DNA of 64,000 bases from assembly GCA_965541585.1 (NCBI GenBank), contig CBEUCH010000014.1, positions 12,670 through 76,669 on the forward strand, read 5' to 3'. Under the pieces are notes generated by a model. That model made no database searches. It was given only the letters and a program-made list of their open reading frames with translations, and had not been told where the DNA came from. This document shows positions 4,716-31,826 of the stretch, piece by piece. This DNA is from an uncultured bacterium. GTDB lineage: Bacteria > Zixibacteria > MSB-5A5 > UBA10806. The position numbers and the translations under genes were made by a program. Position 1 is the first letter of the stretch; the number at the start of each line of letters is the position of its first letter.

Positions 4716-4756
4716 AGGAACTCTTTACAAACTTAAATATGTTTTAATCATCGGCC

Positions 4757-6571
4757 ATGAATGCCGCGATAATTTTCATTATAACGCTGATTCTGACACT
4801 GGTTTCGGTTTCGGAATTTGCGCTGGCAAAGGGAGTGGTTTGCCTATACGACAGCACCGATATCGAGGTGAAAAAGAACTTATCGGCGGTCGTTAAGGTA
4901 TTCAAGACCTTTGAGATTACCACCGAAGCGGGAGCGAGATTCGCGGAGGTGACTGTTCCCCTGAACGATTTTATAAAGATAAAAGATATCAAGGGCTACA
5001 CTCTTCTGCCGGGCGGGCGCAGAGTAAAGCTCAAATCGCAAGACGTTCAAAGGGCGTCCGCCACCAGAATTCGGGAGTTCGGGGGCACACGGTTGTTGTT
5101 GATATCCCTCAGGTCTCCCGCAGTTGGCGCCATAATTCATTATGAATACACCTTGGATATAAGGAGCCTGCTGTACCTGCCTCGTATTACCCGCGATACC
5201 TCATATCCTACCGAGCGATTCGTGGTGCGCCTCAGGTGGCATAAAAATGTTAAACTGAATTATGATTTTAACGGTCTGGAAATAGAATTGTCAAAAAAGG
5301 ATATCAGATTTCATGCGGAGAATCTCCCGGAATTGCCGGCTGAGAATCAGTCCTGTCCGGATGACCTGTATCTGCTTTTGAGCACCGAGGCCTTCGCATA
5401 TGGTAAGATGAAATACCACTCAAGATCCTGGGCTGATGTCGGCCGGTTTTTTGCGCAGCAGGCCCTCCAGTCGGAGGAATCTTTAATAGAGGCGGGGCGG
5501 CTGGCATCGAGACTGGCCGGAGGATCTCTATCTCGCGAGGATACTCTGAAAGCCCTGTTCGATTTTGTGGCCGATTCGGTTTCCTACGTGGCGTTAGAAA
5601 TAGGCAGAGGTGATTTCGAGCCGCACTCCTGCGGCCGCATAATCGAGCGGCGTTTCGGAGATTGCAAGGATCAATCGGTTCTGCTTAGCTCGCTTTTCAG
5701 GAGCGTGGGTATCGATGCCTATCCGGCTTTAGTTTTCACAGGAGATTATCCCAGAGTGAGCGATCTTCATCCCTGGCCGGCATTTTTCGATCATGCCGTG
5801 GTAGTTGTCAAGGAGCCCCGGAGTAATCTGGTTCTGGATCCCAGCGATCCGCTGTCATCTATCAATTCGCCGCCTCCTCGTCTGCAGGGCAAGAGCTTTA
5901 TAGTGGCCGACGGTTACTCCGGATTGCAGGAGCCTGATCCGAGCTCTAAGCCATCCCGTGGAATTATCTGGCAATTCACCATAACGGAGGAAATCTCTGG
6001 TGGGCTAAGTGTGGATTTTTCACTTAAGTATCTGAACGATGCGGCCATATCAGCAGGTGAGAGGTACGGTAATAATCACCGGCAACAATTATACGAACCG
6101 GTTGTGACGGCCCTTCAGGATGCCGGCTGGCAGATGTCATCTATTGATTTTCAACCGGTCGTAAAAGGTTTGGATTCGCTGGTTATCGCCGGCCGATTTC
6201 GAATATCAGATGATAATATTCGCCCGCTTGGGAATCTGGCCGTAGGTTCTCCGCTGGTCTCATACCTGTTGGATAATCTCTTCGGACAGGTAAGGGAAGG
6301 AGACTATTGCCATAACGGTTCTATTCTCCTCGAAGAATCGGTGCGGATCAGGTTGTCTCCGCACCTGCTAGTTGATATAGCCGAATATCATGATCTGTGG
6401 CTGCGCGACAGTCTGGAATTTTCAGATGAGATCTCTTTTGACGATGGTTCGGTGCTTTTTCGTCGGGCATTCGATTTTGCAGGTGGCATGATCAGCGCTG
6501 ACGATTATAACAATTTCCGCGATTATATCCTCTCCGCGAGAAACCAGCGGTATGTCCAGATCAGCCGATAG
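4757..6571 (+). CDS. transglutaminase-like cysteine protease superfamily protein (DUF3857-type N-terminal region plus TGase-like core)
   Basis: Signal peptide. Core motif ..EPHSCGRIIERRFGDCKDQSVLLSSLFRSVGIDAYPALVF...HPWPAFFDHAVVVV.. fits a Cys-His-Asp transglutaminase-like core. Confidence 0.6.
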   Translation: MNAAIIFIITLILTLVSVSEFALAKGVVCLYDSTDIEVKKNLSAVVKVFKTFEITTEAGARFAEVTVPLNDFIKIKDIKGYTLLPGGRRVKLKSQDVQRASATRIREFGGTRLLLISLRSPAVGAIIHYEYTLDIRSLLYLPRITRDTSYPTERFVVRLRWHKNVKLNYDFNGLEIELSKKDIRFHAENLPELPAENQSCPDDLYLLLSTEAFAYGKMKYHSRSWADVGRFFAQQALQSEESLIEAGRLASRLAGGSLSREDTLKALFDFVADSVSYVALEIGRGDFEPHSCGRIIERRFGDCKDQSVLLSSLFRSVGIDAYPALVFTGDYPRVSDLHPWPAFFDHAVVVVKEPRSNLVLDPSDPLSSINSPPPRLQGKSFIVADGYSGLQEPDPSSKPSRGIIWQFTITEEISGGLSVDFSLKYLNDAAISAGERYGNNHRQQLYEPVVTALQDAGWQMSSIDFQPVVKGLDSLVIAGRFRISDDNIRPLGNLAVGSPLVSYLLDNLFGQVREGDYCHNGSILLEESVRIRLSPHLLVDIAEYHDLWLRDSLEFSDEISFDDGSVLFRRAFDFAGGMISADDYNNFRDYILSARNQRYVQISR

Positions 6572-8471
6572 ATTCTTTATTCGCAGACGCCTGTTGGCCT
6601 GTTTCCTGCCGATCCTGGGCTTCTTCTTCTTGCCGTCGGTGTGCGGCTCGCAGTCCGTCTTCGAGGAGCTGCGTGGTCGATATCGCCTTGTTTATGATTC
6701 TACATTCATCTGGCCCGACGGCAAGGGCGGATTCGATTACGTCAGACGATTCATATCTGAGGTAGTCCTTGCAGAGGATGGAAGGGGTGTGCTCTCACGC
6801 CCGGCGACCCCGATTCTGAAAAAGGAAGATGAGATCGGGATAACAGCCTATACCGTGCTGCCATCCGGGGAAATTCATTATGCAGATTCAACCGATCTGG
6901 TCACCAGGACTTTTCCCGGAGACGCCAGGAGAATCTTCGTCAATTTCCGGCAACCGGAACCGGGTGCGATGCTGCATTTTGAATGGACCCTGATATCGAA
7001 AAAGGCGAACATATCCGGTAAGCGTTTCCTGGGCAGGACGGTCGGAGTCGATTCAGCGATAATCATTATAACTGTTCCGGAGACCTGGGTTTTCAATTTC
7101 GCGATCTCCCCGGAACTTGCTGTCAGAGAGGCAAGACTAAGAGAGCGACTTGTAGATGGCCCCGCCCGGGTAAGCTATTCCTGGGCTGCGACGAATCTTG
7201 GCCCCCTGAATATTGAGGAGTTTTCCCCACCTGTCCATCGAATGATATACTGCGTTTATTTTTCTCTATCGCTCGATGTTGGATGGCCCGATCCTGAATT
7301 GCAGAAGGTAAGCTGGGCGAAGATCGCAAAGCTCTATTACACCGAATTACAAGATTTCATCAAAGAGAGCTCGTCTATCGATCGGATTGTCGATTCGCTA
7401 GATGCCCTGGTTTCGGATGATAGGGAGGCGGCCGAAGCCGCCTTCGATTGGGTCAGAGGGAATTTCATACCTCAATATCCCGGCATATCGTTTTCCAAAC
7501 GGTTAGACGAGGTTATTGAACGGGGCAGGGGAACCCGGGCGGAGGGGGCGGCAATTCTGTATGCGATTCTTCAAAAGTTGGTTATTCCCTGCGCCCCTTA
7601 TCTGGCAGCCTCCCACGACACTGGAGATCCGATGCCGGATCTGCCCGGCCTTTTCTGGTTCGATCGGGTGCTGGTGGCCTGTTTCCTGGATGGAGACACG
7701 ATCTGGACAGATCCTTCTTATCCGGCAATAGAGCTGGGTATTCTGCCGTTCGAGGATCAGAATATCCCGGTGCTTCGTCTCGATGAAGCCACCGCGGAAT
7801 TCGCCTCCACACCCGATATCGATTACCATGACAACGGCAAAGCGATTCATCTAAAGCTCGATATCGATTCGTCAGGAGCGCTATATGGTGAGGCAACTGA
7901 AATATATTCAGGGGCGTTGATAGCCGAAATATCCTCTTATATGTTCAGCCTGGAAGAGGAGCAGAGAAAAATGCCCTGGGAGAGGAAGCTGGCCAAATCC
8001 TTTCCGGGGGTGAAGCTTCTGAGGTTCGTTTCTATTCCTCCGGTGGCGGAGGGCGAGGCTTATCGGGTCGGCTATACATTTACCACGGGGCCGATAATCA
8101 GGCCTTTCGCCAGGCGGGCATATATCCCGATGGATCTCCTGGGGCGATGGGAGGATTTGCCCGCGCTACCGCCGGGAAGCAGGCAATTCCCGATCGAGCT
8201 CCGCAGGCCGAGGTTTGAATTTGAGAGGATTACGCTGAATATCTCGCCTGCTCTGGAGGTGGAATACATCCCCAAGAATTTTTCCATGAATAGCTATATC
8301 GGCGAGATATATTCGGTAGCGCGAAAAGACGAAAATACCATTACGATTACCCGGGGTTTTGGCCTGAAGAGATCGAAGCTTCCGCTCTCGGCATATAAAT
8401 CGCTCAGAAGATTTTTCAACGCAGCGCGAACTGAGGCCGATAAGCAGATCATTTTAAGAAGGATTGATTGA
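6552..8471 (+). CDS. DUF3858/transglutaminase-like partner protein (core possibly degenerate)
   Basis: 639 aa overlapping the previous gene by 20 bp. Region RGTRAEGAAILYAILQKLVIPCAPYL...FDRVLVACFLDGDTIWTDPSYP resembles a TGase-like fold. The paired DUF3857/DUF3858 arrangement is a known pattern. Confidence 0.45.
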   Translation: MSRSADRFFIRRRLLACFLPILGFFFLPSVCGSQSVFEELRGRYRLVYDSTFIWPDGKGGFDYVRRFISEVVLAEDGRGVLSRPATPILKKEDEIGITAYTVLPSGEIHYADSTDLVTRTFPGDARRIFVNFRQPEPGAMLHFEWTLISKKANISGKRFLGRTVGVDSAIIIITVPETWVFNFAISPELAVREARLRERLVDGPARVSYSWAATNLGPLNIEEFSPPVHRMIYCVYFSLSLDVGWPDPELQKVSWAKIAKLYYTELQDFIKESSSIDRIVDSLDALVSDDREAAEAAFDWVRGNFIPQYPGISFSKRLDEVIERGRGTRAEGAAILYAILQKLVIPCAPYLAASHDTGDPMPDLPGLFWFDRVLVACFLDGDTIWTDPSYPAIELGILPFEDQNIPVLRLDEATAEFASTPDIDYHDNGKAIHLKLDIDSSGALYGEATEIYSGALIAEISSYMFSLEEEQRKMPWERKLAKSFPGVKLLRFVSIPPVAEGEAYRVGYTFTTGPIIRPFARRAYIPMDLLGRWEDLPALPPGSRQFPIELRRPRFEFERITLNISPALEVEYIPKNFSMNSYIGEIYSVARKDENTITITRGFGLKRSKLPLSAYKSLRRFFNAARTEADKQIILRRID

Positions 8472-8474
8472 GCG

Positions 8475-9284
8475 ATGCCGGAGTTGCCGGAGGTTGAGAC
8501 CATCGTAAGAGATCTCAAGGGACGAGTGATCGGGGCGGAGATCCGGGGAGTCAGCTTTCTAAATGGGTCGATATGGCGCAACGGCAAACCTCCTTCACGA
8601 TCCCTGATTCAAAGGAAGATCGAAAATATAGATCGCAAGGGCAAAAACATCCTCATACATCTTTCCAAAAACCGCACGCTGGTTGTACATCTGAAGATGA
8701 CGGGGAGATTGACGTTCGAGGCCTCCGGAGTTCCGCTGGTCAAGCATACGCATTTTGCGATCAAGCTTGATAATGGAGAACTTCGGTTTAACGATGTCAG
8801 GCGGTTTGGCTATCTCGATCTTGTGAAATCATCTGAACTTGACAAAATAGGTTATCTATCACGACTGGGACCTGATCCTCTCCTGATAGCTGAAGATGAA
8901 TTTATCAGGATCATCCGGTTGAAAAGGCGGATCATTAAATCTTTACTATTAGACCAGAGAATCATCTCCGGCCTGGGGAATATTTACACCGACGAGGCGT
9001 TGTTCCTGGCGGGGATACATCCGCGAAGAATCTCCTGTGGTCTTAGCCGAAAACGCTTAGGACAACTCTACCAGGCAATAATTGAGATATTGAATGCGGC
9101 GATCGAGGGCCGGGGCTCATCCGTCGGCGATTATGTGGATGGCTCAGGTTTGCCGGGCTTCTACCAGGAACGCCACAAGGTATACGGTCGCGAAGGGCAA
9201 CCATGTTTTCAGTGTGATAGACCTATTAAAAGGGAGATTATCGGCAGCCGGTCTGCGCATTTCTGCACGCGCTGCCAGAGGTAG
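8475..9284 (+). CDS. mutM: formamidopyrimidine-DNA glycosylase
   Basis: Canonical N-terminus MPELPEVETI, H2TH region, and C-terminal zinc finger CFQCDRPIKREIIGSRSAHFCTRCQR. Confidence 0.9.
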   Translation: MPELPEVETIVRDLKGRVIGAEIRGVSFLNGSIWRNGKPPSRSLIQRKIENIDRKGKNILIHLSKNRTLVVHLKMTGRLTFEASGVPLVKHTHFAIKLDNGELRFNDVRRFGYLDLVKSSELDKIGYLSRLGPDPLLIAEDEFIRIIRLKRRIIKSLLLDQRIISGLGNIYTDEALFLAGIHPRRISCGLSRKRLGQLYQAIIEILNAAIEGRGSSVGDYVDGSGLPGFYQERHKVYGREGQPCFQCDRPIKREIIGSRSAHFCTRCQR

Positions 9285-9432
9285 ACATTTGGAGGATGAG
9301 ATCGCTTCGTCGTCTCATACGAGTCGTACGACCTGCGGACTCCTCGCGATGACGAAACCTCCCGCTGACATTCCCGATCCTACAGATCCGTAGGACCCCG
9401 GTCAGGAATCCAGCGCAGAGGCTTCCCTATGG

Positions 9433-9452
9433 ATTCCCGCGTGCGCGGGAAT
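9433..9452 (+). terminator. candidate hairpin downstream of mutM
   Basis: Inverted repeat attcccgcg-tgc-gcgggaat followed by an AT-rich stretch. About 150 bp after the mutM stop. Confidence 0.25.
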
Positions 9453-9638
9453 GACATTATTATCTTTATACAGCAGGGGCGAGGTTACCTCGCCCCTACA
9501 AACATGATTATTATTATCTCAAATATATTAATTTTATGGTCGTTGAATTCCGTGGAGTCTTTGCTCTGGCGAAATAGATTCCGGATGAGATTTTATTTCC
9601 CAGGGCATCCCGGGCGTCCCATATGATTTTTCCCTCCT

Positions 9639-11023
9639 TTATCTACATTTCAAGAATCCTATTTCTTGTTTCGAATGCTGTAAATCCCGATCATACCTCC
9701 TCTCGATTCTCAACGCTGTCTCTCTCCTCCTCGCAATCGCAATCGTGCTGGCAGCCAACAACAACAAAGCCAAGATGAGCATCCCCCATTCAGACAATGT
9801 TGGTATCTCCAAAATCTCATCCCGGCGGCTATAGTAAATACCGCGCCCATCCAGGCCGCTATCCTGCCGCCAGACAACGTGCACGGTCTCATCCACAACA
9901 GCCAGATCCGGCGCCAGAGACATTCCGGGATCATCCTCTATCCTCTGCTGTTCTCCCCATGTAGTTCCATTGTCTTCACTCAGCATATAAAAGATATCCC
10001 CCTGGTTATATCTCCAATCCTCCCAAACCGAATGAATCAAATCCCCCTGCCAGATGACATTCGGATATAGAGCATCATGGGTGAACGTTATTTGCTCTTC
10101 CTCCGACCAGATTTCTCCAGAATCATAGCTGTATCTTACGAACAGATCCCCGCGCCAGAGATTGGGCGAATATTTGTAGTCCATCCAGCAGACAATCAAC
10201 TCGCCCCGGTCATTTATGGCGACGGAGGGCCAGTCGGAGCCCTCGCTATCAAGAGTCGAAAGCATGATGTTCTCAGACCAGCTATCACCGGAATCGGTGC
10301 TTCTTTTATAGTAGATTTCCCATTCGTCATCATAATTGAACCTGCCTACCCAGACGAAGTGAATGATATCTTCTCTGGCCACGATTTCAAAGCGCCCCGT
10401 CTCCTGTGTCTGGAAAACCTCTGTTGGTTCCGCCCAGGTCTCGCCCCAGTCGTTACTCTTAGTGAATTCAACCACGATCTGCTGCTCAGCTGTGCGACTA
10501 TAAATCAAGAATAGTGAAGAGCCAAAGAAGGAGAATGCATGTTTATGAAGTTCATAGCTGTTTGAGGGTAGAATATAGGTGACGTTTCCCCATGATCCGC
10601 CTCCGTTTGACGAACGCCGAAATCCAAGATTGTATTGCCCCCCCCTGGAAGATTCTGCCACCATATGGTAGCCACACTATCTCCTTTCACTTGGACCCAA
10701 GGCGAATCTTCGCCCTCTGATATCAAAGAATTACCTAGACGGAAGGGCTCCGCCCAATTTCCCCCCGCGTTTATACTTCTCAGATAATGTGACTCTGCAT
10801 GCCCTGTCCATATCCAATAAACGACATGCAAGGTATCCCCATTAGCGGCTATCCCCGGGCCAAAGGACGTAGCCTCATCGCTTATCCGCACCGGTGGCGT
10901 CCAGCCGGCATAAGAAACTGAGGCCAGCAACACCAACCACGGAATTATCAGGTTTCGACAAACACGCATGATGATACCTGCCACTGCTTCGCAATAGATA
11001 TGGCTTTTAATAAATATAACCAA
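9639..11023 (-). pseudogene. BNR/Asp-box repeat exported protein with IPTL-CTERM-like sorting tail. It is apparently frameshifted, or there is an assembly error
   Basis: Two overlapping minus-strand ORFs (11023..10505 and 10664..9639) read as one protein. N-terminal signal peptide, then multiple S-x-D-x-G-x-T-W Asp-box motifs (SNDWGETW, STDSGDSW, SYDSGEIW, SEDNGTTW), then ...IPTLSEWGMLILALLLLAASTIAIARRRE. Confidence 0.5.
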
Positions 11024-11088
11024 TTTCCAAGAAAATGTGATATTTTTCTTAGAAGATATATACTGGATTGGCGCGTTGGCGGGAATGA

Positions 11089-12216
11089 CTATAGCGGTTT
11101 TTCATAAACCCGGTATCGCTTATACGGCCGGGCGCCCATGTCGACTGCGCCTTTATTCATAAGCGTGTTGCGCTCCAAGATCCAGGACAACTCGGCCCAC
11201 TTGTAACCCTTGCGCCTACCCTCGTTGTAGGTATCGACGAAGAAAATCATATCCAGGCCGAGCTTCTGATATTTATGCACGACACCCATCGTAACTAACC
11301 TGAGCCCGGTGATTATCTTTTTGACTTTCGTGTAATAAAGGAACTTGAACAGTCCCAGCGGGAATAGCCGTCCGTTCATCTTCTTAAGCACCGGATTGTA
11401 ATCGGGCAGGGCCAGGCAAAATCCGGCGGGCTCGTTATCGATGAATGCCAGCAAAACAATATCGGGATCGACAATCTTTCTAAAATCGTCGGCAGTATAT
11501 TTGAATTCCTCCGGTGTCATGGGAACGAAACCCCAGTTTTTGCTCCAGGCGGAATTGTAGATAGTCCTGACGATATCGAGCTCGTTTTCAAAATCTTTCA
11601 TATCGATTGTGCGTATCGTGATCCTGTTTCTGGAGCGAATTTTCCGGACAATTCTCTGTATTCTCTCCGACGGGGCGCTACTATCATCGATATAATAGGC
11701 AAGCAAATCCTCCACCTTTTTCAGGCCGAGTTTATCATATAGAGCAAGATAATACTGTGGGTTGTAAACCATCATAAACGACGGCAGCGAATCAAAACCT
11801 TCCACTAATAGCCCCATTTCATCGTTGGAGGAGAAATTCGCGGGACCCCTAATGGTCTCCATTCCCTCGGCCTTAACGAAATCCTCGGCGGCGCGCAGAA
11901 GCCCGGAGGCCACATCGATATCGTCGATGCAATCGAAAAAGCCGAAGAAGCCGGTCTTTTCGTCATGGAATTCATTATGAAGGTCGTTTATTATACCGGC
12001 GATCCGGCCCACGGGCTCATCGTTTTTGTATGCCAGGAAATATGACACGCGGGCATGCTGAAAGAACGGGTTGGCCTGTTTGTCGAGAAACTTCTTTCGG
12101 TCCGATATCAGATGCGGGACATAATAAGGATCGTTTTTATACAGTCTGAAGGTCAGTTTTATGAATTTTCGTAAATCGTTTTTGGTCTTGACTTCTCTTA
12201 TAGCTATCGATGACAA
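11089..12216 (-). CDS. GNAT-fold N-acyltransferase (BioF2-associated/FemAB-like type; candidate bacterial ceramide synthase-like)
   Basis: 375 aa. Sits directly downstream of, and translationally adjacent to, the AOS-family gene (12217 stop vs 12216 start). Confidence 0.5.
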   Translation of the reverse strand: MSSIAIREVKTKNDLRKFIKLTFRLYKNDPYYVPHLISDRKKFLDKQANPFFQHARVSYFLAYKNDEPVGRIAGIINDLHNEFHDEKTGFFGFFDCIDDIDVASGLLRAAEDFVKAEGMETIRGPANFSSNDEMGLLVEGFDSLPSFMMVYNPQYYLALYDKLGLKKVEDLLAYYIDDSSAPSERIQRIVRKIRSRNRITIRTIDMKDFENELDIVRTIYNSAWSKNWGFVPMTPEEFKYTADDFRKIVDPDIVLLAFIDNEPAGFCLALPDYNPVLKKMNGRLFPLGLFKFLYYTKVKKIITGLRLVTMGVVHKYQKLGLDMIFFVDTYNEGRRKGYKWAELSWILERNTLMNKGAVDMGARPYKRYRVYEKPL

Positions 12217-13443
12217 TTATATGATTCCGAATTGTTTGCCGATTTGATGGAATGTCTCCAGGACCCGGTCAATTTGTTCGTCGGTATGGGTGGCAGTATA
12301 GCTAGTCCTTATTAGCGCCTTACCGGGTGGCACGGCGGGCGGGATGATGGGGTTGGTGAAGAGGCCGGCTTCGGTGAGCGCTTTCCAGAACGTGAAAGTC
12401 TTCATATCTTCGCCGATGTAGATTGGAACTATAGGCGTTTGCGTGGGGCCGATATCAAAACCCATATTGGTGAATTCTTTATGCATCCGCTTTGTAATCT
12501 CCCACAGGCGAGCCCGTCTCTCCGGCTCGGATCTCAATATCTTGAGAGTGGCCCGCACCGCAGCCACTGCCGCCGGTGGAGGTGAAGCGGAGAATATCAG
12601 CGTCCTTGAGTGATGTTTTATATAATGAATGGTTTCCTCATCGCCTGCAATAAACCCTCCAAGGGAAGCGAATGACTTGGAGAAGGTTCCCATTACGATA
12701 TCGACCTTATCCTCGAGATGAAAATGCTCTGCAGTTCCCCGCCCGTTATCCCCTAACACCCCGATGCTATGGGCATCGTCGACCATAAGCCGGGCATCAT
12801 ATTTTGATGCCAGCTCCGTGATCTTCGGCAGATCTGCGATATCACCCTCCATGGAGAAGACACCATCGGTGGCTATCAGTTTTCCTCCGGGGGAGTTGTT
12901 TTTCTCCAGAAGCCGTTCCAGGTCGGCCGTATCATTATGCTTATATTTCTTGAACTCTCCGAACACCAGCCGGCAACCATCGACGATAGAGGCGTGATTG
13001 GCTCTATCACCGAATATTATATCATCTTTGCCGACAAGGGTAGGAATGGTGCCCAGGTTGGTCTGGAAGCCGGTCGAAAAAACCAGGGCGGCTTCTTTTT
13101 GCATAAAATCCGCCAGCTCTTCTTCCAGTTTGACATGTATATCGAGTGTACCATTGAGAAAACGGGAACCGGTACAGCCTGAACCGTATTTGTCCACCGC
13201 TTTGTGTATAGCCTCGATGACATCGGGGTGGTTTGTCAGGCCCAGATAATTATTGGAGCCGATCATTATAACTTTTTTACCCTCGGCGATAACCTCTGTG
13301 CCGGGAGAGGACGATATCTGTCTGAAATATGGATACAGCCCCGCCGCTTCCACTTCGCGGGCAACCTTGAAGTTCTTATACTTTTCAAATAAGTCCATTA
13401 AATCTCCGGGATCGCAACAAACGCCTTGCAGGGATACCATCAA
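12217..13443 (-). CDS. alpha-oxoamine synthase family PLP enzyme (serine palmitoyltransferase / KBL / BioF-like)
   Basis: Motifs [22 protein letters not shown], and the PLP-lysine region [15 protein letters not shown] typical of AOS enzymes. Confidence 0.85.
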
Positions 13444-13513
13444 TCACCTAATTTTGCCATGCGAATTGTCAAGTTACCGTGCGCTTTTTTGAAAGTCAAG
13501 AGGATAAGGCAAG

Positions 13514-14497
13514 ATGCGAAAGATACTCGTAACCGGCGCTAATGGATTCATTGGATCGCATATCTGCGAAACGTTGCAGAGCGCTGGCTTCGACGTCCGG
13601 GCGCTGGTCAGGCGGACATCGGATTTGACCAATATAATGCATCTCGATCTTGAGCTTGCTCACGGCGATTTGAACGACGCTGATTCGCTTCCGGCGGCGA
13701 TCGAAGGTGCAGAGGCAATAGTCAACAACGCAGGTATTACAAAAGCTCTGGATAGTGATATGTTTGATCGCGTGAACTCAGCCGGAACAGAAAATATTCT
13801 GAAGGCGATTGAGAGATCAAATCCGGATATTAAGGATTTTATACAGATTTCTTCAACCGCGGCCTCAGGCCCGGCGCCATCGGATACGCCCATCGATGAG
13901 GATTATCCACCGCGGCCGCTGACGGCTTACGGAAAATCGAAGCTTGCAGGCGAGACGGCGGTTTTAGCCTATCGTGATAAATTCCCGGTGACTGTACTGA
14001 GACCTTCTGCCGTTTATGGCCCCCGCGACAAAGAAATGCTGTCGTTTTTCAAGGCCGTGAGTTTTCGGCTCAAGCCGACATTCGGAACAGGGGAATGCTA
14101 TGTCAATTTCACCTACGTTAAGGACCTGGCGCAGGCCGTGGCGAGAACGCTTACAGAAGCTTCGTCATCTGGCAGCGTATATTTTGTTGCTGAGAAAAGA
14201 CGGTATTCGTACAGCGAGGCCGGTGATATAATGAGCGAGGTTCTGGGAATTAAGGGGTTGGATATACATGTGCCTGCCACCTTGCTGAGGTTTGCGGGAA
14301 AGATATCGGAGATAACTGCTAAATTAAGAAATAAGGCGTCCATATTTTCAGCGGATAAGGCCTTGGAGATATCGCAAAAATACTGGCTTGTCGATACTTC
14401 CAGAATTGAGCGCGAGTTGAGCTTTGTGTCTCCCACGTCGTTCAGAAATGGCGTTATAGAAACGGTTGACTGGTACAGGAGGCATGGGTGGCTGTAG
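13514..14497 (+). CDS. NAD-dependent epimerase/dehydratase-family reductase (candidate CerR-like)
   Basis: N-terminal Rossmann motif ILVTGANGFIGSHI, YxxxK region (YGKSK). Divergently transcribed from the AOS/GNAT pair. Confidence 0.75.
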   Translation: MRKILVTGANGFIGSHICETLQSAGFDVRALVRRTSDLTNIMHLDLELAHGDLNDADSLPAAIEGAEAIVNNAGITKALDSDMFDRVNSAGTENILKAIERSNPDIKDFIQISSTAASGPAPSDTPIDEDYPPRPLTAYGKSKLAGETAVLAYRDKFPVTVLRPSAVYGPRDKEMLSFFKAVSFRLKPTFGTGECYVNFTYVKDLAQAVARTLTEASSSGSVYFVAEKRRYSYSEAGDIMSEVLGIKGLDIHVPATLLRFAGKISEITAKLRNKASIFSADKALEISQKYWLVDTSRIERELSFVSPTSFRNGVIETVDWYRRHGWL

Positions 14498-15642
14498 ACA
14501 TGTTCGACTTTCAGAAAGCTCGCTCGAATTTTATGCTGGCCGATGGCTTAATCTATCTGAATCACGCATCGCAAGGTCCTCTACCGATACCATCGCGGGA
14601 GGCCTATGACCTGTATCTTGATAGATGGCAAAAGATGGATCATCGGCACGAGGCCGAGCTCTTTACGAGCCTCGAGAACGTCCGAAAAGACCTGGCCGGG
14701 CTGATCGGTGCCACTCCCGACCGGATAGGGATCTCGTCCACGACCTCTTTCGGCCTGAATATCGTCTCGGCAGGATATCCCTGGGCCGCGGGTGACAATG
14801 TGGTTGTTTCCGACGGGGATTTTCCAGCCAGTATTTATCCCTGGATGCGTTTGGAATCCAGCGGCGTAGAGATTAGATTCGCCAGAAACAGAGGCGGCTT
14901 TATCGATGAGGACGCCTTAATGTCGCTGTCCGACGGCAGGACGCGTGTGATCTGTATAAGCTGGGTGCAATTCAACAACGGTTATCGGGTCGATCTTGGG
15001 AAATTGGGGGGATTCTGTCGTGAAAATGGGATTATCTTCTGCGTGGACGGCATCCAGGGAACCGGCGTAATTCCCATTGACGTGCCGTCGGAGTATATCG
15101 ACCTGTTCAGTTGTGGCTGCCAGAAGTGGATGCTTGGCCCGTATGGTACAGGCTTCTTTTATCTATCTGAAAGGGCCGAGGAGATGATCCATCCGCCACT
15201 TCTGGGCTGGCTTTCTGTCGACTGGGGGGGCGAATTTACAGATCTATTAAAATACAGGTTGGCTCCGCGGACGGGGCCGTCGAGATACGAAATAGGAACC
15301 TACCCATTCCAGGATATATCTGCCCTTGAAGCCTCTGTCGACCTGCTACAGTCATTCGACAGGCAGGCTGCATGGGACCATATAAGATCGCTGACAGGCA
15401 TGATAGGCGAATTTGTGGAATCCGATCGCAGATACGAATTGAAATCATCGATGGATGATTCAAGAAGATCAGGAATTATGGCCATTCAAGCCACTGATTC
15501 TCGAAAGCTCTTTTCCTACCTGACGGATAAGAGCTTCGCGGTCAGCCTCCGTGAGGGGGCCGTGCGGATCTCTCCCCATTTCTACAACAGCCCGGGTGAG
15601 ATCGAATCGCTAATTGAGTCATTACAGAGTTTTAAAGCATAG
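14488..15642 (+). CDS. class V aminotransferase (cysteine desulfurase/selenocysteine lyase-like) PLP enzyme
   Basis: 384 aa. PLP-lysine context SCGCQKWMLGPYGTGFFY. Overlaps the upstream gene by 10 bp. Confidence 0.75.
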   Translation: MAVDMFDFQKARSNFMLADGLIYLNHASQGPLPIPSREAYDLYLDRWQKMDHRHEAELFTSLENVRKDLAGLIGATPDRIGISSTTSFGLNIVSAGYPWAAGDNVVVSDGDFPASIYPWMRLESSGVEIRFARNRGGFIDEDALMSLSDGRTRVICISWVQFNNGYRVDLGKLGGFCRENGIIFCVDGIQGTGVIPIDVPSEYIDLFSCGCQKWMLGPYGTGFFYLSERAEEMIHPPLLGWLSVDWGGEFTDLLKYRLAPRTGPSRYEIGTYPFQDISALEASVDLLQSFDRQAAWDHIRSLTGMIGEFVESDRRYELKSSMDDSRRSGIMAIQATDSRKLFSYLTDKSFAVSLREGAVRISPHFYNSPGEIESLIESLQSFKA

Positions 15643-15813
15643 AATCCGGCTCTCACTAAAAGGGGCTGTAAAGCCTGGATATAAAAGAATTATCGGATTA
15701 ACAGATAATTATTCTTAAGACCGTAACTGGTGCTCTCCTGACTCAAATATTCCGAACTGCCCATCAAACAAGGTTTCTATTGACAGCCCCGTATTTAATT
15801 ATTAAAATAACCT

Positions 15814-16554
15814 GTGCCGCATGTAATTGGAATAATTCCAGCCCGATATCAGTCAAAACGTTTCCCCGGCAAGCCCCTGGCTCTGCTTGGAGGAATCCCC
15901 TTAATTGTCCGGGTCCTTGAAACCGCACGGAATGCAAAGCTCATTTCTGAGGCGTATGTGGCAACCGACGATGATAGAATCGCATCGACCGTTAGGCAAC
16001 ACGGCGGACAGGTACTGATGACATCGAGTGATCCGCCCACCGGAACGGACAGGGTAGCCGAGGCGGTTTCGGATCTCAGAGGTGGTGATTTCATCGTTAA
16101 TATCCAGGGAGACGAACCGTTTCTCTCCGGCGACGTTATAGATAAGGTCATAACCGCTCTTGATGATAGTGACGTCGCGATGTCGACCGCCTGTTCGCCG
16201 ATCGAAGAACGGAGTCAGGCGGACGATCCTAATGTCGTTAAGGTTGTACTGGACGGGGCCGGGAACGCCCTTTTCTTTTCGAGAAGCAGAATACCGTACG
16301 ACCGCTCGGGTCAGGCCGGCGTAGCACAGCTATATCGCCATATCGGGATCTACGGCTTCAAGAGAGATTTCTTGATGAAATTCAGATCGCTGGAGAGAAC
16401 CCCGCTTGAAAAGTCCGAAGGCTTAGAGCAGCTCCGCGCTCTTGAGCATGGATATAATATTAAAACGGTTGTTGTCGAAGGGGAATTCCCGGGGATAGAC
16501 TCCGAAGAAGATTTGTTCAAGGCGGAGGAGCTTCTGGGTAAGAGGAGACGCTGA
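15814..16554 (+). CDS. kdsB: 3-deoxy-manno-octulosonate cytidylyltransferase (CMP-Kdo synthetase)
   Basis: N-terminus [24 protein letters not shown] and an NIQGDEP motif. Confidence 0.85.
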
Positions 16555-16555
16555 G

Positions 16556-18211
16556 ATGGCTGATAATAACAGGGGAACGAAATACATATTCGTAACGGGC
16601 GGAGTTGTGTCGTCCCTGGGTAAAGGAATTGCCGCGGCATCTATCGGGCTGCTTTTGAAATGCAGGGGCTTGAGCGTCAGAATGATGAAATGCGATCCCT
16701 ATATCAATGTCGACCCGGGAACCATGAATCCCTTTCAGCATGGGGAGGTATTCGTTCTCGACGACGGTTCCGAGACGGATCTCGACCTGGGCTATTATGA
16801 GCGGTTTCTCGACATAAACTTAAATAGCCTTTCAAATATAACCTCGGGGCAGGTTTACGATGCAGTGATCCAGAGTGAGAGAAGGGGCGTGTATTTAGGC
16901 GCCACGGTTCAGGTAATTCCCCATATAACCAATGAGATTAAATCGAGGATCAGGCAACTGGCCGAGACGCCGGAGCCGGCGGACGTGGTCATCATAGAGA
17001 TCGGCGGGACCGTCGGTGATATCGAGTCTCTGCCATTCCTTGAGGCTATCAGACAGATGGCGCTCGAGGAGGATGACTCAGACACGCTATTTATACATTT
17101 GACTCTGGTCCCCTATATAGAGGGCGCGGGTGAGTTGAAGACGAAACCGACCCAGCATTCGGTAAAGGCTTTGCGAGAGATCGGGATAGATGCGGATATA
17201 TTGATATGCCGCAGCTCCCGGCCTTTAACACGCGATGCCAAGAAGAAAATCGGCCTGTTCTGCAATGTGCCGCCGGAGGCGGTGATTCAGGATCTCGATG
17301 TAGAGTCGATCTATGAGCTTCCTATCGAATTCCACAAGGAGCTTGTAGATAATATCCTGGTTCATTATCTGAAGCTGCTATGCAAGGATCTCGATATATC
17401 GCAATGGGCGTCAATGGTTCAGCGTTTGAAGAACCCGGAGCATAAGGTGAAGATAGGCATCTGCGGGAAGTATATCGATTTAAAGGATGCCTATAAATCT
17501 ATAATTGAGTCATTTGTGCATGCCGGCACGGTCCATAAATCGTCGGTAAGCCTCAAGTGGATATCATCGGAAGGGATCTCCGAAGATGGAGCCGAAGCTC
17601 ACCTATCCGATATCGACGGGCTCCTGGTTCCGGGGGGGTTCGGGGAACGGGGGATCGAGGGGAAAATCGAAGCGGTCAGGTATGTTCGAGAGAATAATAT
17701 ACCGTTTTTGGGCATATGCCTGGGTTTGCAGTGCGCGGTAGTGGATTTCGCCAGGAACGTGGCCGGGCTGAAGCATGCCAATTCCTCGGAATTCGACAAT
17801 AAGACGGCGCATCCTGTCATAGATCTCATGGACGAACAAAAAGGCGTAACCGACAAGGGGGGGACCATGAGGCTTGGCAGTTATCCATGCAGAATTGTCC
17901 CGGCGACCCTGGCGCACAAACTTTATGGAGCTGTAAATATTAAGGAACGTCACCGCCACCGTTACGAGGTCAACAACGAGTACAGGGAGAATCTGGGCTC
18001 GGCGGGCATGGTTCTATCGGGCCTTTCGCCGGACGGAAACCTGGTGGAGATAATTGAGCTGCCGTCCCACCCCTTTTTCATAGCCTGCCAGTTTCATCCG
18101 GAATTGAAATCCCATCCCATGAATCCTCATCCGCTGTTCGCAGGGCTCGTGGGTGCTGCGCTCGAATATAAGCAGGTCAGTAGCAAGGCCGCTGAGAAAG
18201 TAGAAAAGTAG
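16556..18211 (+). CDS. pyrG: CTP synthase
   Basis: N-terminal [18 protein letters not shown]-terminal class I GATase with GICLGLQ and HPE motifs. 551 aa. Confidence 0.95.
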
Positions 18212-18225
18212 CCGGGGGGCTGATT

Positions 18226-18651
18226 TTGAAATCTATTCGAGAATTAATCTCCGGGATTCTAATGCTTACGTTCGCCGGCGTGCTGGCCTGGTTTGGCTGT
18301 AAAGGGCCGGATAATACCGCAGATGATAAAATTCCGTTACCCTTCCCGGATGAGAGGATGTCTAAATTTTACCAGAGCCGCGTCGATTCCTCCGAATTCG
18401 AGTGGTTTACCGATGTCAAGGCCGCGGCATCATCCTTCATAAACGAAATGGATTTTGTTGAGGGTGGAATTTCGACAACGGATGTCGTGATTCTGGGGGA
18501 AGGATTGTTCCATGCTAAAGTCGAGGTGGAGCTTCCTGACAAGATCATGGTGCTGACAATGGAGAGACCGTACAAGCACAAGGGCAAGAATTCTATCTGG
18601 CAGGTAATGGGGGTAGAAGAGAAGGAATGGCCGAAAAGAAAGTCGGAATAG
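18226..18651 (+). CDS. hypothetical small exported/lipo-protein
   Basis: 141 aa, signal peptide ending ..AWFGC. Overlaps the kdsA start. Confidence 0.4.
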   Translation: MKSIRELISGILMLTFAGVLAWFGCKGPDNTADDKIPLPFPDERMSKFYQSRVDSSEFEWFTDVKAAASSFINEMDFVEGGISTTDVVILGEGLFHAKVEVELPDKIMVLTMERPYKHKGKNSIWQVMGVEEKEWPKRKSE

Positions 18652-19439
18652 GCAATGTGACGGTTGGAGGCGACCAGTTGGCGCTTATAGCTGGGCCGTG
18701 CGCCGTAGAGTCTGAGGATATAACATTTAAAGCAGCAGAGACGGTTGCTGCGGTCCGCGATAAGTACAAGATTCCGGTAATATTCAAATCGTCGTATATG
18801 AAAGCCAATCGCTTGTCGGGGCAGTCGTTTTCCACCATGGGGATTGGCAAGGCGCTCTCCATTTTGCAGGATGTAAAAGGGAAATTCAATCTCCCTATCC
18901 TGACCGATATTCACAGCGTGGAGGAGATCGAACTGGTCTCCGATATCGCCGATTGCCTGCAGATACCGGCTTTTCTTTGCCGCCAGACCGAGCTTGTTAT
19001 GGCGGCTGCGAAGACGATGCTGCCATTGAATATCAAAAAGGGTCAGTTCCTGGCGCCGGAGGATATGAAACCTATTGCCGAGAAGGTCACCGCTACCGGC
19101 AACTCTAAGGTTCTGCTAACCGAACGGGGCACCAGTTTCGGATACCACGATCTGGTGGTTGATTTCCGAGGTCTTCTGATCATGGCCGAACTGGGTTTCC
19201 CGGTGGTGTTCGATTGTACCCATTCGGTTCAAAAACCGGGAGCGGCGGGAGGCTCCTCCGGCGGCGATCCCAGGTTTATCATTCCGCTGGCGCGTGCAGC
19301 AGTGGCAGTTGGTGTCGATGCCATTTTTGTGGAGACGCATCCCGAACCGTCGAAAGCGCTATCTGACAAAGAATGCCAGCTGCCTACGGATAAACTTGCT
19401 GAGTTGGTGGAGAGCATTCTGGAGATAAGAGCAGTTTAG
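18627..19439 (+). CDS. kdsA: 2-dehydro-3-deoxyphosphooctonate aldolase (Kdo-8-P synthase)
   Basis: LALIAGPCAVES, KSSYMKANRLS, LTDIH, GFPVVFDCTHS motifs. Confidence 0.9.
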   Translation: MAEKKVGIGNVTVGGDQLALIAGPCAVESEDITFKAAETVAAVRDKYKIPVIFKSSYMKANRLSGQSFSTMGIGKALSILQDVKGKFNLPILTDIHSVEEIELVSDIADCLQIPAFLCRQTELVMAAAKTMLPLNIKKGQFLAPEDMKPIAEKVTATGNSKVLLTERGTSFGYHDLVVDFRGLLIMAELGFPVVFDCTHSVQKPGAAGGSSGGDPRFIIPLARAAVAVGVDAIFVETHPEPSKALSDKECQLPTDKLAELVESILEIRAV

Positions 19440-19454
19440 AGTATAGAGGGGATC

Positions 19455-19925
19455 ATGCCATCCAAAAAATCCTGGCGTGAGAAGCTGGCCGATAGCAAGG
19501 ATCTGCCTAAAATCCAGAAGGTCGAGGGGAAAATGTCCAGGCGCTGGGGCGAGGGGACATTCGTTATCCCTGCACCGGTGGAGGTTAATGAAATGATGCG
19601 CCGGGTTCCCAAGGGGAAGCTGGTCACCATTAATGAGATCCGGGCCAAGCTGGCAAAGAAGCATCGGGTAAACTTCGGGTGCCCAATCACCACAGGAATC
19701 TTTGCCTGGATCGCGGCCAACGCCGCCGAAGAGATGGCCGCCGAGGGGAAAAAGAGGATCACGCCCTATTGGCGGACTCTCAAAGCCGGCGGCGAGCTCA
19801 ATCCCAAATACCCGGGCGGGATCAGGAATATCAGATCGCGTTTGAAGGCTGAGGGCCATAAGGTCGTCAGCAAAGGCAAGAAGTTTGTCGTCGAAGATTA
19901 CGAGAAAGCGCTGGTAATGATTTAG
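19455..19925 (+). CDS. hypothetical conserved basic protein
   Basis: 156 aa ORF with good coding appearance. No recognised motif. Confidence 0.4.
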   Translation: MPSKKSWREKLADSKDLPKIQKVEGKMSRRWGEGTFVIPAPVEVNEMMRRVPKGKLVTINEIRAKLAKKHRVNFGCPITTGIFAWIAANAAEEMAAEGKKRITPYWRTLKAGGELNPKYPGGIRNIRSRLKAEGHKVVSKGKKFVVEDYEKALVMI

Positions 19926-20056
19926 CCGTATTTCATTTGCTTTTTTTATCCCGTGATTTTCCCCGGCGAACGCATTAGCATCTTATCGTGAATCATGGTA
20001 GATCCAGCTTCCACCATTATATGAGCGCTTGACACTTTTTTGCCTTAGAGGTTATT

Positions 20057-21607
20057 TTGACAATAATGAAAAAACTCAATTCCAGCCTTTTAATATTCAT
20101 TATTTTTCTGCTCTTTTTTCTGGCAGTACAAAATGCCGACCAGCAGGTAGATTCATACTCTTTCGTTCTGGACGCCCGAAATGGAGAGGGTTTATTTCAT
20201 CCACACCACCTGCTTTATAACGTTTTCCGATATGCCCTGTACCAGGCATCGATATCAGTGGACATGGATGCGATGAAAGTCCTGTCTATTGCCAATTCCC
20301 TGTTCGGCGCGCTTTCGTTGGCGTTTATATTTATGATCGTAAGAACTAGAACATCTTCCACTTTAGCCCTGACGGCGTCAGTGGCGGTGGGATTTCTATA
20401 TTCCTTCTGGTATTTTTCAACATCGGTCGAAGTTAACATTACATCGCTGATGTTTTTGTGCCTTGCGCTCTATTATCTGTCTGCCAAACCACCCAATGAA
20501 AAAAACACCATGGCCGTTTTCGCGTTTATAACGGCCGGAATACTCTTCCACCAGCATATGGTATTGGCCGTAATACCTATTCTGCTTTACGAGGCCCACC
20601 GGCATCGATCTTTTGCGCTGGCCGTGAGGTATTCCATGCCGAGCTTTGTGACGGGAGCGCTGATATATCTCATCATAGGAATAATCGAGGCGCCGGATAA
20701 AAGCATCGGAGGCCTGTATAGATGGTTGACGCTATACACCCACTTAGGCCATTGGGGAAAGCTCCGGTGGACAAACTTCCTGACCAGCCTGTGGGGAGTT
20801 GCCAAATCGGTCTTTGGCGGGGACAACCTGAGGCAGGTATTTTACAGTGACAACTTAGCGGTGTCAAACGTGATATACATCGTAGCGGCGGCTCTGTCAT
20901 CTATGGGATTTCTTCTGCTTCTGGTCTCAGCTTTTCGTCATTTTTCGAAAAAGAGGAATTCATTTGAGTGGCTGTTATTGTCACTGGCGGTAATTTTCGT
21001 AGTTTTCGCATTCTGGTGGGCACCCACTGATTCTGGTTTCTGGCTATATCCAGTTGTGCTGTTTCTTCTGTTCATCATCATGGCGGTCAGCGAGAATTAT
21101 CGGATGAAAAGAGTATTATATCTCGCCGTAGTGCTGCTGGTCACGATTAATACCTTCTATGAAATAGTATCGTCATCGGTGGCGAAAAAGTCAATTGCCC
21201 GGCAGGGGGCCGAAGCTTTGAGCAGACTCGAGCTTACCCCGGATGATCTGCTGTTGACCAATCTCGGGCGGATACCTCTAGCGCTCGATTATCACTATGG
21301 GATAAAAGTGCCATCTACCGGCCTGGCCTTTCTGGAAGAGGGTGAAAATGACGAGACCGTCAAAGAATACCACAGGCTGATTGGACAGAATCGAGGAAGA
21401 GTCATCATATTCGAGAATGAGATCAGCCCCGAAGCGCATCGACGCTTCCTGTTCGAGAGGTTTTCGGTGGAAGATTATTCCAACGTATATAGCCGATACA
21501 TTCCTCTTTTAATACCCCTCGATTCCATCGCGGTTTATGGCAAGAAAGTAAAAATATATCAAATCCGCAACAATGTGACTAAGGGTGATGGAATTCTCTC
21601 TCAATAG
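20057..21607 (+). CDS. polytopic membrane protein, possibly a glycosyltransferase-C fold (ArnT/PMT-like) enzyme
   Basis: 516 aa with about 10 or more hydrophobic helices. Embedded in the Kdo/LPS cluster. Confidence 0.4.
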   Translation: MTIMKKLNSSLLIFIIFLLFFLAVQNADQQVDSYSFVLDARNGEGLFHPHHLLYNVFRYALYQASISVDMDAMKVLSIANSLFGALSLAFIFMIVRTRTSSTLALTASVAVGFLYSFWYFSTSVEVNITSLMFLCLALYYLSAKPPNEKNTMAVFAFITAGILFHQHMVLAVIPILLYEAHRHRSFALAVRYSMPSFVTGALIYLIIGIIEAPDKSIGGLYRWLTLYTHLGHWGKLRWTNFLTSLWGVAKSVFGGDNLRQVFYSDNLAVSNVIYIVAAALSSMGFLLLLVSAFRHFSKKRNSFEWLLLSLAVIFVVFAFWWAPTDSGFWLYPVVLFLLFIIMAVSENYRMKRVLYLAVVLLVTINTFYEIVSSSVAKKSIARQGAEALSRLELTPDDLLLTNLGRIPLALDYHYGIKVPSTGLAFLEEGENDETVKEYHRLIGQNRGRVIIFENEISPEAHRRFLFERFSVEDYSNVYSRYIPLLIPLDSIAVYGKKVKIYQIRNNVTKGDGILSQ

Positions 21608-21744
21608 ATTTGCGGCCTGGAGTACCGAGAACGATCGGAATTTCCTTCGGGTAGCAGTAAAATGGCCACCCGAGGGGCAAATCTATCCCGCCACCCCCGC
21701 CTTTTCTATTGACTAAGTGCATCAGTATAAATTAATTCTCTACT

Positions 21745-22278
21745 ATGCGGAAAGCGGTGCATAAGAATCTGAAGTCGAAGCTTAAGAAGATCGAGCTTTT
21801 CGTTTTCGATGTCGATGGCGTTCTCACCGACAACACCGTCTGGATGGGAGGCGACGGTGATGAATACAAGCGGTTCAATATCGCTGACGGTATGGCGGTT
21901 TATATCGCCCGGCGGGCGGGGATACCCACGGCGTTTGTCTCGGGCCGAAAATCTAAAGCCACCACCGCACGGGCACGGGAGTTGAAGATAAAAGACCTTT
22001 TCCAGGAGGCCGGGCCGAAACGGGTGCCGTTTGAAAAGCTTCTGAAGAAATATAAACTGGTTGCCGAACAGGTGGCGTTCATGGGCGATGACGTTATCGA
22101 TGTGGCGGTGATGAGAATGGCCGGCATCGCGGTCACCGTGCCGCATGCACCCTCATATGTCAGAAGATACGCTGATATCGTGACCAAACGGCGGGCCGGT
22201 ATGGGTGCGGCGAGAGAATTGGTGGACATGGTGTTGAAGGCGAAAGGACTGGATCCGGTTGAACTCACTTATAGATAA
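21745..22278 (+). CDS. kdsC: Kdo-8-phosphate phosphatase (HAD family)
   Basis: FVFDVDGVLTD HAD motif I and FMGDDVIDV motif. 177 aa. Confidence 0.8.
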   Translation: MRKAVHKNLKSKLKKIELFVFDVDGVLTDNTVWMGGDGDEYKRFNIADGMAVYIARRAGIPTAFVSGRKSKATTARARELKIKDLFQEAGPKRVPFEKLLKKYKLVAEQVAFMGDDVIDVAVMRMAGIAVTVPHAPSYVRRYADIVTKRRAGMGAARELVDMVLKAKGLDPVELTYR

Positions 22279-24174: not shown

Positions 24175-24176
24175 TT

Positions 24177-24746
24177 TTGAATATCTTTCTGGTTCTCACA
24201 ACGGCGGCCGCCTGCAGCAAAACTGAAAGGCAGCCGGAAGAGCCTCTGGATGAAAAAATACCGGATTCGGTTATCCAGAACGCTACAATAGCTTTGACCT
24301 CCGAGGGATTAAAAGAGGCTGTGATTTTCGCTGATACGTTGACTGTTTTCGACCGGGAGGATTCCACGATTGCCGTAGGGGTCAAGGTCGATTTTTACGA
24401 TGAGAACGGCGAATATCAATCTACACTGACCTCGAAAGAGGGTCTGGTAAGGCAGACGAGGCGTGAGTTTTGGGTACGGGGCGACGTTGTTGTCGTCAGC
24501 GATTCATCGCGGCTCGAGACTGAATCGCTGAAGTGGGATCCGGTGCAAAAACTGATTACCACCGATGATTTCGTAAGACTTCACAGGGGAAAAGACATTA
24601 TTACCGGCTACGGAATGGAGGCCGATAGCAGGCTTGAGAATGTGAGAATCCTCCGGGATATTAAAGGCAGCATAACGGATATTCCTCAAAGCGAGGAAGA
24701 GTTGGATGAACTCGAAGGAGACGAGGGCGGGGGGAATCTTCCATGA
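24177..24746 (+). CDS. lptC: LptC/LptA-family (OstA-like) LPS export protein
   Basis: 189 aa with lipoprotein-like leader (..TTAAACS). Directly upstream of and overlapping lptB. Probable TTG start. Confidence 0.5.
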
Positions 24747-25501: not shown

Positions 25502-25619
25502 GGGGGAGTCGTGCCCGGCTGTTACAGTCTTAACCATATAAAGGAAAATTGTGTTGATCCGCTATTTAACGTATTCGCAATTGGTGGCTTAATTTTTCCT
25601 AGATAATTTCGGGAGGGAC

Positions 25620-31821: not shown

Positions 31822-31826
31822 CAGAT

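Follow-up and report, generated by a model that had tools for sequence, protein, structure and literature searches.

In Caulobacter crescentus, ceramide synthesis relies on three enzymes, namely the serine palmitoyltransferase Spt (CC_1162), the bacterial ceramide synthase bCerS (CC_1154, also CCNA_01212) and the ceramide reductase CerR (CC_1164) (Olea-Ozuna 2021; Stankeviciute 2022). These belong to the alpha-oxoamine synthases (AOSs), the tandem GNAT N-acyltransferases and the extended short-chain dehydrogenases/reductases (SDRs), respectively. A sphingolipid cluster has also been described in E. coli B, where it is represented by ECD_02850-02854 of BL21 (Padilla-Gomez 2022, PMC9386255), and clusters of Spt-like, bCerS and CerR genes were found in metagenome-assembled genomes of 38 phyla in a study of the Black Sea (PMC11334938). 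The cluster analyzed here lies in a 64-kb stretch of contig CBEUCH010000014.1 from an uncultured Zixibacteria bacterium (hereafter, the window, meaning all of its 64,000 nucleotides). It consists of an Spt-like AOS gene and a GNAT gene on the minus strand and, divergently oriented, an SDR gene and a gene for a class V-fold enzyme dependent on pyridoxal 5'-phosphate (PLP) on the plus strand. The same three families as in Caulobacter are thus present, and the locus probably endows a Zixibacteria-type organism with the bacterial route of three enzymes to (dihydro)ceramide.

The likeness to Caulobacter is established through E. coli, since the GNAT is connected to bCerS via YghO and the SDR to CerR via ECD_02852. 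In contrast to Caulobacter, the window holds no AcpR, AasR or LptF2/G2, the gene order differs, a class V gene is added, and the putative Spt falls in the Bacteroidetes/delta-proteobacterial subgroup whereas that of Caulobacter falls in the Rhodobacteria subgroup. In the E. coli locus, the genes follow the order lptF-like, lptG-like, AOS, acyl carrier protein (ACP), epimerase, fatty acyl-AMP ligase and yghO; 4068 of 5426 complete E. coli genomes carry the stretch from spt to yghO, whose AOS is named 'spt' by RefSeq. The three genes are clustered in both organisms, and when the E. coli proteins were compared with the 64-kb window by tblastn, each matched one gene, the three matches being the three cluster genes; at the protein level, the identities are 39% for Spt, 38% for YghO and 28% for the epimerase. 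However, the ACP, the fatty acyl-AMP ligase and the LptF/G paralogues are extras of the E. coli cluster, which has no class V gene, and E. coli Spt prefers acyl-AcpR, unlike the putative acyl-CoA-type Spt of the window. In Bacteroidota the three genes have been reported as unlinked (PMC11334938), whereas in the window they are adjacent. The Black Sea clusters, instead, share with the window the same co-localized gene set in uncultured bacteria. Both the set of three genes and its broad occurrence among metagenome-assembled genomes are already published, and the window locus is a further example, from Zixibacteria; neither Zixibacteria nor an association with a class V gene is mentioned in PMC11334938.

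Homology of the three putative ceramide enzymes

The AOS carries the hallmarks of fold-type I AOSs, the PLP lysine (Lys244, in the numbering of the serine palmitoyltransferase, SPT, of Sphingobacterium multivorum) and the histidine that stacks on PLP (His138), so that the PLP-lysine motif named in the original prediction is indeed conserved. Among the NCBIfam models, the highest score was obtained with SerpalmtaseCFB (NF047600, 565.9 bits), followed by gly_Cac_T_rel (related to BioF/Kbl, 430 bits), bioF (417 bits) and Kbl (414 bits). A comparable ranking emerged from the PDB, where S. multivorum SPT (3A2B/8GUH) reached 445 bits, ahead of a KBL/BioF-like chain (322 bits), KBL (298 bits) and cysteate-C-fatty acyltransferase, a sulfonolipid enzyme (254 bits). 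The alignment to 3A2B extends over 387 aa with 52% identity and no gaps, and it conserves Asn52, Gly80, Ser81, Phe83, His138, Ser185, Asp210, Ala212, His213, Thr241, Ser243 and Lys244. In particular, all 12 of the listed side-chain contacts to substrate or PLP are kept, as are 12 of the 13 published active-site residues overall (list from PMC10196870), the remaining one being Met271, a main-chain substrate contact that is replaced by Ile in the AOS. With the PLP- and serine-binding residues retained in an ungapped alignment, the AOS would be, like the S. multivorum enzyme, of the soluble type that uses acyl-CoA; it departs from it in the Met271 substitution and in scoring under the NCBIfam cut-off. 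In a neighbour-joining (NJ) tree, the window AOS formed a clade with 50 GNAT-adjacent AOSs and S. multivorum SPT (79% bootstrap), the Spt of Streptomyces and of E. coli B branched deeper, and Kbl and BioF fell outside. The placement among the Spt enzymes that had been proposed from the sequence thus holds on the ranking of the hidden Markov models, on the PDB scores and on the tree, and an identity as KBL or BioF was rejected by model ranking, tree and synteny. All in all, the AOS is a putative Spt and belongs with the enzymes of Bacteroidetes and delta-proteobacteria that use acyl-CoA.

The succession of an AOS, a reductase and an N-acyltransferase is common to sulfonolipid synthesis as well (PMC9304779). 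The AOS and the GNAT might then produce a lipid of the sulfonolipid or capnine type, from cysteate and acyl-CoA, or another aminolipid instead of a sphingolipid, and the weak resemblance of the class V enzyme to enzymes that process cysteine or cysteine sulfinate would be in line with such a product. The AOS, however, lies far closer to SPT than to cysteate-C-fatty acyltransferase by the PDB scores given above, and the GNAT and the SDR are homologous to sphingolipid enzymes of Caulobacter and E. coli. Moreover, the window offers no cysteate synthase to support this route, as its sole PALP enzyme is a threonine synthase (566 bits, against 66 bits for the cysteate synthase model, whose cut-off is 325). 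The sulfonolipid reading was therefore rejected because of how the AOS scores and because no cysteate synthase is found in the window, and it is extremely unlikely.

The GNAT has no NCBIfam match and no sequence match in the PDB, and its Pfam assignment to Acetyltransf_1 is weak (23 bits). This assignment is nevertheless backed by an AlphaFold2 model, built from an alignment of 88 sequences with a pLDDT of 91.4, and by the Foldseek matches of the model, which are tandem-repeat GNATs at E-values of about 1e-13 (7Q3A, 5KF1, 2WPW, MshD). The folds matched include MAB_4324, glucosamine N-acetyltransferase, a clavulanate tandem GNAT and MshD, and no bCerS structure was among them. The protein is accordingly modelled as a two-domain tandem GNAT fold, and its C-terminal domain bears a QKxGxD motif. 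Functional assignment comes from E. coli YghO, retrieved by tblastn of plasmid records, to which the GNAT is 38% identical over its full length of 375 aa (BLASTP, E 3e-87). By gene order YghO corresponds to ECD_02850, which in turn shows 44% identity to Caulobacter CC_1154, the bCerS (E 1e-107; PMC9386255 supplement). On these grounds, the proposal that the GNAT is an acyltransferase of the bCerS type was upheld. The YghO-like family comprises 8,707 clusters at 50% identity (E <= 1e-3), without a dedicated Pfam or NCBIfam model, and some of its members occur as fusions. Indeed, an AOS and a GNAT are joined in a protein of 780 aa (P0135), and a GNAT is joined to an AMP-binding domain resembling fatty acyl-AMP ligases in another of 940 aa (P0240), a combination that hints at fatty acyl substrates for the GNAT. 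A third protein (P0121, 784 aa) is a tandem duplicate of the YghO-like GNAT.

The SDR presents an N-terminal Rossmann motif of the GxxGxxG type (GANGFIGS) and a YGKSK sequence of the YxxxK type. It is 28% identical to the epimerase of the E. coli cluster, ECD_02852 (E 3e-36), a divergence similar to that among accepted CerR orthologues, as CC_1164 and ECD_02852 share 34% identity (7e-38; PMC9386255 supplement). The NJ tree of the SDRs placed the window protein in a clade with 99% bootstrap together with the SDRs of the E. coli and Streptomyces clusters and 33 SDRs adjacent to AOS-GNAT modules, whereas GalE, HldD and three non-adjacent SDRs remained outside. Membership of one clade with the CerR homologue of E. 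coli, as well as with SDRs encoded beside AOS and GNAT in other phyla, agrees with the anticipated CerR-type reductase. The SDR is thus CerR-like and would reduce 3-keto(dihydro)ceramide or 3-ketosphinganine.

From gene presence, homology, synteny, fusions and active-site conservation, all of which are observed, we infer the enzyme activities and the lipid product. The Spt-like AOS would condense L-serine with a long-chain acyl-CoA to 3-ketosphinganine; the tandem GNAT, presumably translated from the same mRNA as the AOS, would N-acylate the long-chain base; and the divergently transcribed CerR-like SDR would use NAD(P)H to reduce the 3-keto group, yielding dihydroceramide. The class V enzyme, co-translated with the reductase, would be an accessory to the pathway. 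It should be considered that even for Caulobacter there is disagreement on whether acylation precedes reduction (PMC11087976; PMC11324152). No homologues of ACP, acyl-ACP synthetase, LptF2/G2 or PAP2_3 were detected in the 64-kb window (tblastn with E. coli AcpR, AasR and LptF2/G2). The lack of an ACP is expected, because Spt of the Bacteroidetes type uses acyl-CoA, whereas the alpha-, beta- and gamma-proteobacterial enzyme needs AcpR and AasR (PMC11324152). A five-gene ceramide system of the Rhodobacteria type, with AcpR and AasR, was excluded for the window, where such genes are missing.

Linkage of the genes across bacteria

When genomes were scanned with the GNAT alignment, 80 loci were obtained, all from uncultured genomes, in which gene presence was scored by tblastn. 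Their record labels include Zixibacteria, Ignavibacteria, Planctomycetota, KSB1, Calditrichota, Latescibacterota, Gemmatimonadota, Acidobacteriota, Anaerolineae, Nitrospirota, Cloacimonadota, Deltaproteobacteria, Bacteroidota and others. An Spt-like AOS accompanies the GNAT in 56 of the 80 loci, mostly immediately upstream of it, and an SDR adjoins the module in 38, on either side and in either orientation.

Several points weigh against the assignment of the locus to ceramide synthesis. The AOS does not reach the equivalog cut-off of NF047600 (640 bits); because this model scores best and yet the score is below the trusted threshold, the AOS is a divergent member, and not a certified equivalog, of SerpalmtaseCFB. 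The links of the GNAT to Caulobacter bCerS and of the SDR to Caulobacter CerR run via E. coli and a published table, and not through a direct comparison with CCNA_01212 and CCNA_01222. As to the SDR, the outgroup of its tree was small, being made of GalE, HldD and three others with HpnA, OleD and CC_1164 left out, and its top NCBIfam match is HpnA, a hopanoid-associated sugar epimerase, at 132 bits and far below cut-off. In addition, the SDR starts directly with the Rossmann motif and has no apparent signal peptide, whereas Caulobacter CerR has been reported as periplasmic; no signal peptide of CerR is mentioned in the passages of PMC11087976 that were searched. About 24 of the 80 loci, some of them from contig ends, have a GNAT without an adjacent AOS (e.g., L009, L018, L043, L081/L082), and the GNAT family may have other uses or the genes may simply be unlinked, as reported for Bacteroidota. 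Finally, Zixibacteria are uncultured, and the lipid product is predicted from the genes.

The wider survey also returned a number of observations on the module. In the Cloacimonadota loci L081 and L082 and in L071, two tandem GNAT copies are present with no AOS nearby, which for Cloacimonadota is consistent with the unlinked sphingolipid genes published for this phylum and for Bacteroidota (PMC11334938). Unsupervised clustering of the neighbouring genes revealed a PAP2_3 (PF14378) membrane protein beside the AOS-GNAT-SDR module in 12 of the 80 loci (L035, L037, L058-L060, L066, L067, L073-L076 and L084). This Pfam family includes enzymes of the inositol-phosphorylceramide-synthase type, so its position beside the module would fit head-group addition to a ceramide product, and the protein is a candidate for the transfer of a phospho head group to ceramide. 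On a plasmid of Streptomyces sp. NBC_01001 (L086, 5766-10292), an AOS-GNAT-epimerase operon is followed by a condensation-domain gene, which hints at a further-modified aminolipid in actinomycetes. The genes inserted between AOS and GNAT in L008, L012 and L013 looked unrelated to the module, and so did a neighbour family (c14) that by eye resembles lipoproteins with tetratricopeptide-like repeats.

A class V-fold enzyme coupled to the putative reductase

The fourth gene begins with a GTG at 14488, 10 nt inside the end of the SDR gene, and AGGAGG lies 5 nt upstream of this start. The overlap noted in the original prediction is therefore real, and the SDR and class V genes are translationally coupled. 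At the module, a class V gene beside the SDR is found in 6 of the 80 loci, all labelled Zixibacteria, and in none from the other phyla sampled. The original prediction was right to regard this gene as lying outside the described ceramide core.

The enzyme matches all NCBIfam models far below their cut-offs, the best being SufS (95 bits against a cut-off of 475). Its similarity to SufS, CsdA, the cystine lyase C-DES and kynureninase is sub-threshold, and the nearest structures score 60-160 bits. With SufS/CsdA and C-DES it shares the class V fold, the PLP lysine and a C-terminal RxSxHxYN motif, but it differs from them in its distance from all curated cut-offs and in the deletion of the catalytic cysteine loop. 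In particular, when the family profile is compared with B. subtilis SufS, a 13-residue deletion takes out the HHC(A) loop that bears the catalytic cysteine. In an alignment of 38 members, the PLP lysine (K209) is invariant, no conserved Cys is found in the SufS-loop region, and the sole invariant Cys (C173) is located far from the catalytic loop. The label of cysteine desulfurase, which some sources give to this enzyme, was rejected because the loop with the catalytic cysteine is deleted, and a persulfide-forming cysteine desulfurase is unlikely on these sequence features.

The partnership with the reductase extends to loci where AOS and GNAT are missing from the retrieved sequence. In three of them (L089-L091, at about 4570-7180 in each), a CerR-like SDR, a small multi-pass membrane protein and a class V enzyme are encoded together. 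The class V relatives are about 38-40% identical to the window enzyme; the SDRs share 41% identity with that of the window and have module-adjacent SDRs as their best matches. The small membrane protein, of about 120-140 aa, has no Pfam match. The same three-gene unit also occurs in L022, L023 and L029 and may thus be present with or without AOS-GNAT nearby; the small membrane protein is lost in the window lineage. Since units of SDR and class V gene recur without AOS-GNAT in the sequence retrieved for L089-L091, it is with the reductase, and not with the AOS, that the class V enzyme is associated, and it is a lineage-restricted accessory.

The recurrence of this unit on its own, as well as an AOS-GNAT pair that has no SDR or class V gene adjacent to it (L003) and the best curated match of the SDR, the sugar epimerase HpnA, would also be compatible with an independent pathway of two or three genes, for instance for sugar or amino-acid modification, so that only two of the four window genes would act on a lipid. 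Such a separation is very unlikely. Indeed, the SDRs of these standalone units find their closest counterparts in module-adjacent SDRs, the window SDR falls in a well-supported clade that includes the CerR homologue of E. coli as well as SDRs encoded in AOS-GNAT-SDR operons of other phyla, and the adjacency of SDR and module persists over differing orientations in the loci sampled.

A different explanation leaves all four genes in the same pathway and changes the product. The class V enzyme, together with the small membrane protein in relatives, could supply another amino acid or modify the long-chain base; alanine supply would lead to 1-deoxyceramides, and amination or C-S chemistry could take place at the keto intermediate. 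The translational coupling to a CerR-like SDR points in this direction, as does the retention of the SDR-class V pairing across Zixibacteria-labelled loci of 36-58% identity and in the more distant L089-L091, and the loss of the SufS cysteine loop implies that the enzyme is not a housekeeping desulfurase. Furthermore, SPT takes L-Ala and Gly at low efficiency (PMC10196870), and 1-deoxyceramides arise from the same set of enzymes (PMC11334938 supplement). On the other hand, the AOS retains the serine-contacting residues, none of the other phyla sampled has the class V gene at the module, the sequence of the enzyme points to no particular reaction, the nearest structures score low, and operon membership alone is no proof of a shared pathway. 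A non-canonical lipid, which the original prediction had raised as a variant lipid, is accordingly speculative and an unlikely product as compared with a (dihydro)ceramide. It is also unlikely that in Zixibacteria a CerR-like reductase gained a dedicated, SufS-derived partner devoid of the cysteine loop, often with a small multi-pass membrane protein, and that together they turn the ceramide intermediate, or the amino acid from which it derives, into an undescribed lipid that resembles sphingolipids but is altered in its head group or at C3. What can be stated is that the CerR-coupled class V enzyme without the cysteine loop is a modest, unexplained addition to the known pathway.

Gene layout, surroundings and meaning of the locus

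The four genes form the divergent cluster that had been outlined from the sequence, each with an open reading frame and a Pfam match: besides the weak match of the GNAT, these are Aminotran_1_2 for the AOS (6.6e-62), Epimerase for the SDR (4.9e-39) and Aminotran_5 for the class V enzyme (1.5e-39). They are real genes, as each protein has many homologues, ranging from hundreds to thousands with E-values down to 1e-238. The GNAT gene directly follows the AOS gene, as had been recognized, with the stop TAA of the latter abutting the start TTG of the former. The start of the AOS is most likely the ATG at 13398 rather than the TTG at 13443. Indeed, GGAG is located 5 nt upstream of this ATG, the resulting 393 aa equal the length of AOS homologues, and the alignment with E. 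coli Spt begins at the same Met. The divergent spacer, originally taken as 70 bp, is therefore corrected to about 115 bp (13399-13513). It presumably contains both promoters; no sigma-70-like promoter was found in it by a scan whose coverage does not extend to FCB-type promoters, and the scan for sigma-70 promoters and terminators performed no better than on shuffled sequence. No Rfam match was obtained in 9000-17000, the spacer included.

The nearest named relatives of all four proteins are from Zixibacteria metagenome-assembled genomes. The divergent arrangement is conserved in the Zixibacteria loci L005, L006, L008, L012, L022, L023, L027 and L029, and the complete chromosome of Zixiibacteriota bin119 carries the same four genes, flanked on the side of the GNAT by fpg and DUF3857 genes that the window has as well.

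Table 1. Positions of the cluster genes and of other features in the window
Feature	Position	Strand	Details
GNAT, YghO/bCerS-family tandem N-acyltransferase (putative bacterial ceramide synthase)	11089-12216	minus	375 aa
AOS, Spt-like alpha-oxoamine synthase	12217-13398 (mechanical open reading frame to TTG 13443)	minus	393 aa from ATG 13398
Divergent intergenic region	13399-13513	no strand	between AOS-GNAT operon and SDR-class V operon
SDR, CerR-like extended SDR (NAD-dependent epimerase/dehydratase family)	13514-14497	plus	327 aa
Class V-fold PLP enzyme	14488-15642	plus	384 aa; Aminotran_5
kdsB, pyrG	within 15814-33830	plus	Kdo/LPS block
kdsA	18627-19439	plus	Kdo/LPS block
kdsD	22259-23221	plus	Kdo/LPS block
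LpxL-like lipid A acyltransferase	23221-24174	plus	Kdo/LPS block
LptC-domain gene, ABC ATPase, rpoN, hpf	within 15814-33830	plus	Kdo/LPS block
hprK	31827-32795	plus	Kdo/LPS block
MlaD-like gene	32934-33830	plus	Kdo/LPS block
HamA	41519-42529	plus	PADLOC HamA1, 384 bits
HamB helicase	42441-45119	plus	PADLOC HamB1, 1095 bits

Directly downstream of the cluster lies a block of genes for Kdo/lipopolysaccharide (LPS) and outer-membrane lipids (15814-33830, plus strand; Table 1). The sphingolipid clusters of Caulobacter and E. coli carry Lpt paralogues, whereas the window cluster abuts an apparently housekeeping Kdo/Lpt locus. On the other side, between fpg and the GNAT gene, a BNR-repeat protein that bears an IPTL-CTERM sorting signal (9639-11023, minus strand) is split into two overlapping open reading frames in different frames (9639-10664 and 10505-11023), which suggests a frameshift or a pseudogene; nothing is present at that place in Zixiibacteriota bin119. 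A Hachiman anti-phage defence pair is encoded farther along the window (41519-45119, plus strand).

Collectively, these data suggest that Zixibacteria, an uncultured phylum of the FCB group, can make ceramide-type lipids, and they provide a compact, clonable gene set. Such a capacity bears on the reading of environmental signals of sphingolipids and 1-deoxyceramides. At the level of the family, synteny and fusions across many phyla tie the unannotated YghO-like tandem GNATs to Spt, thus affording an operational definition of bCerS. Within the locus, only the CerR-coupled class V enzyme could point to new chemistry.

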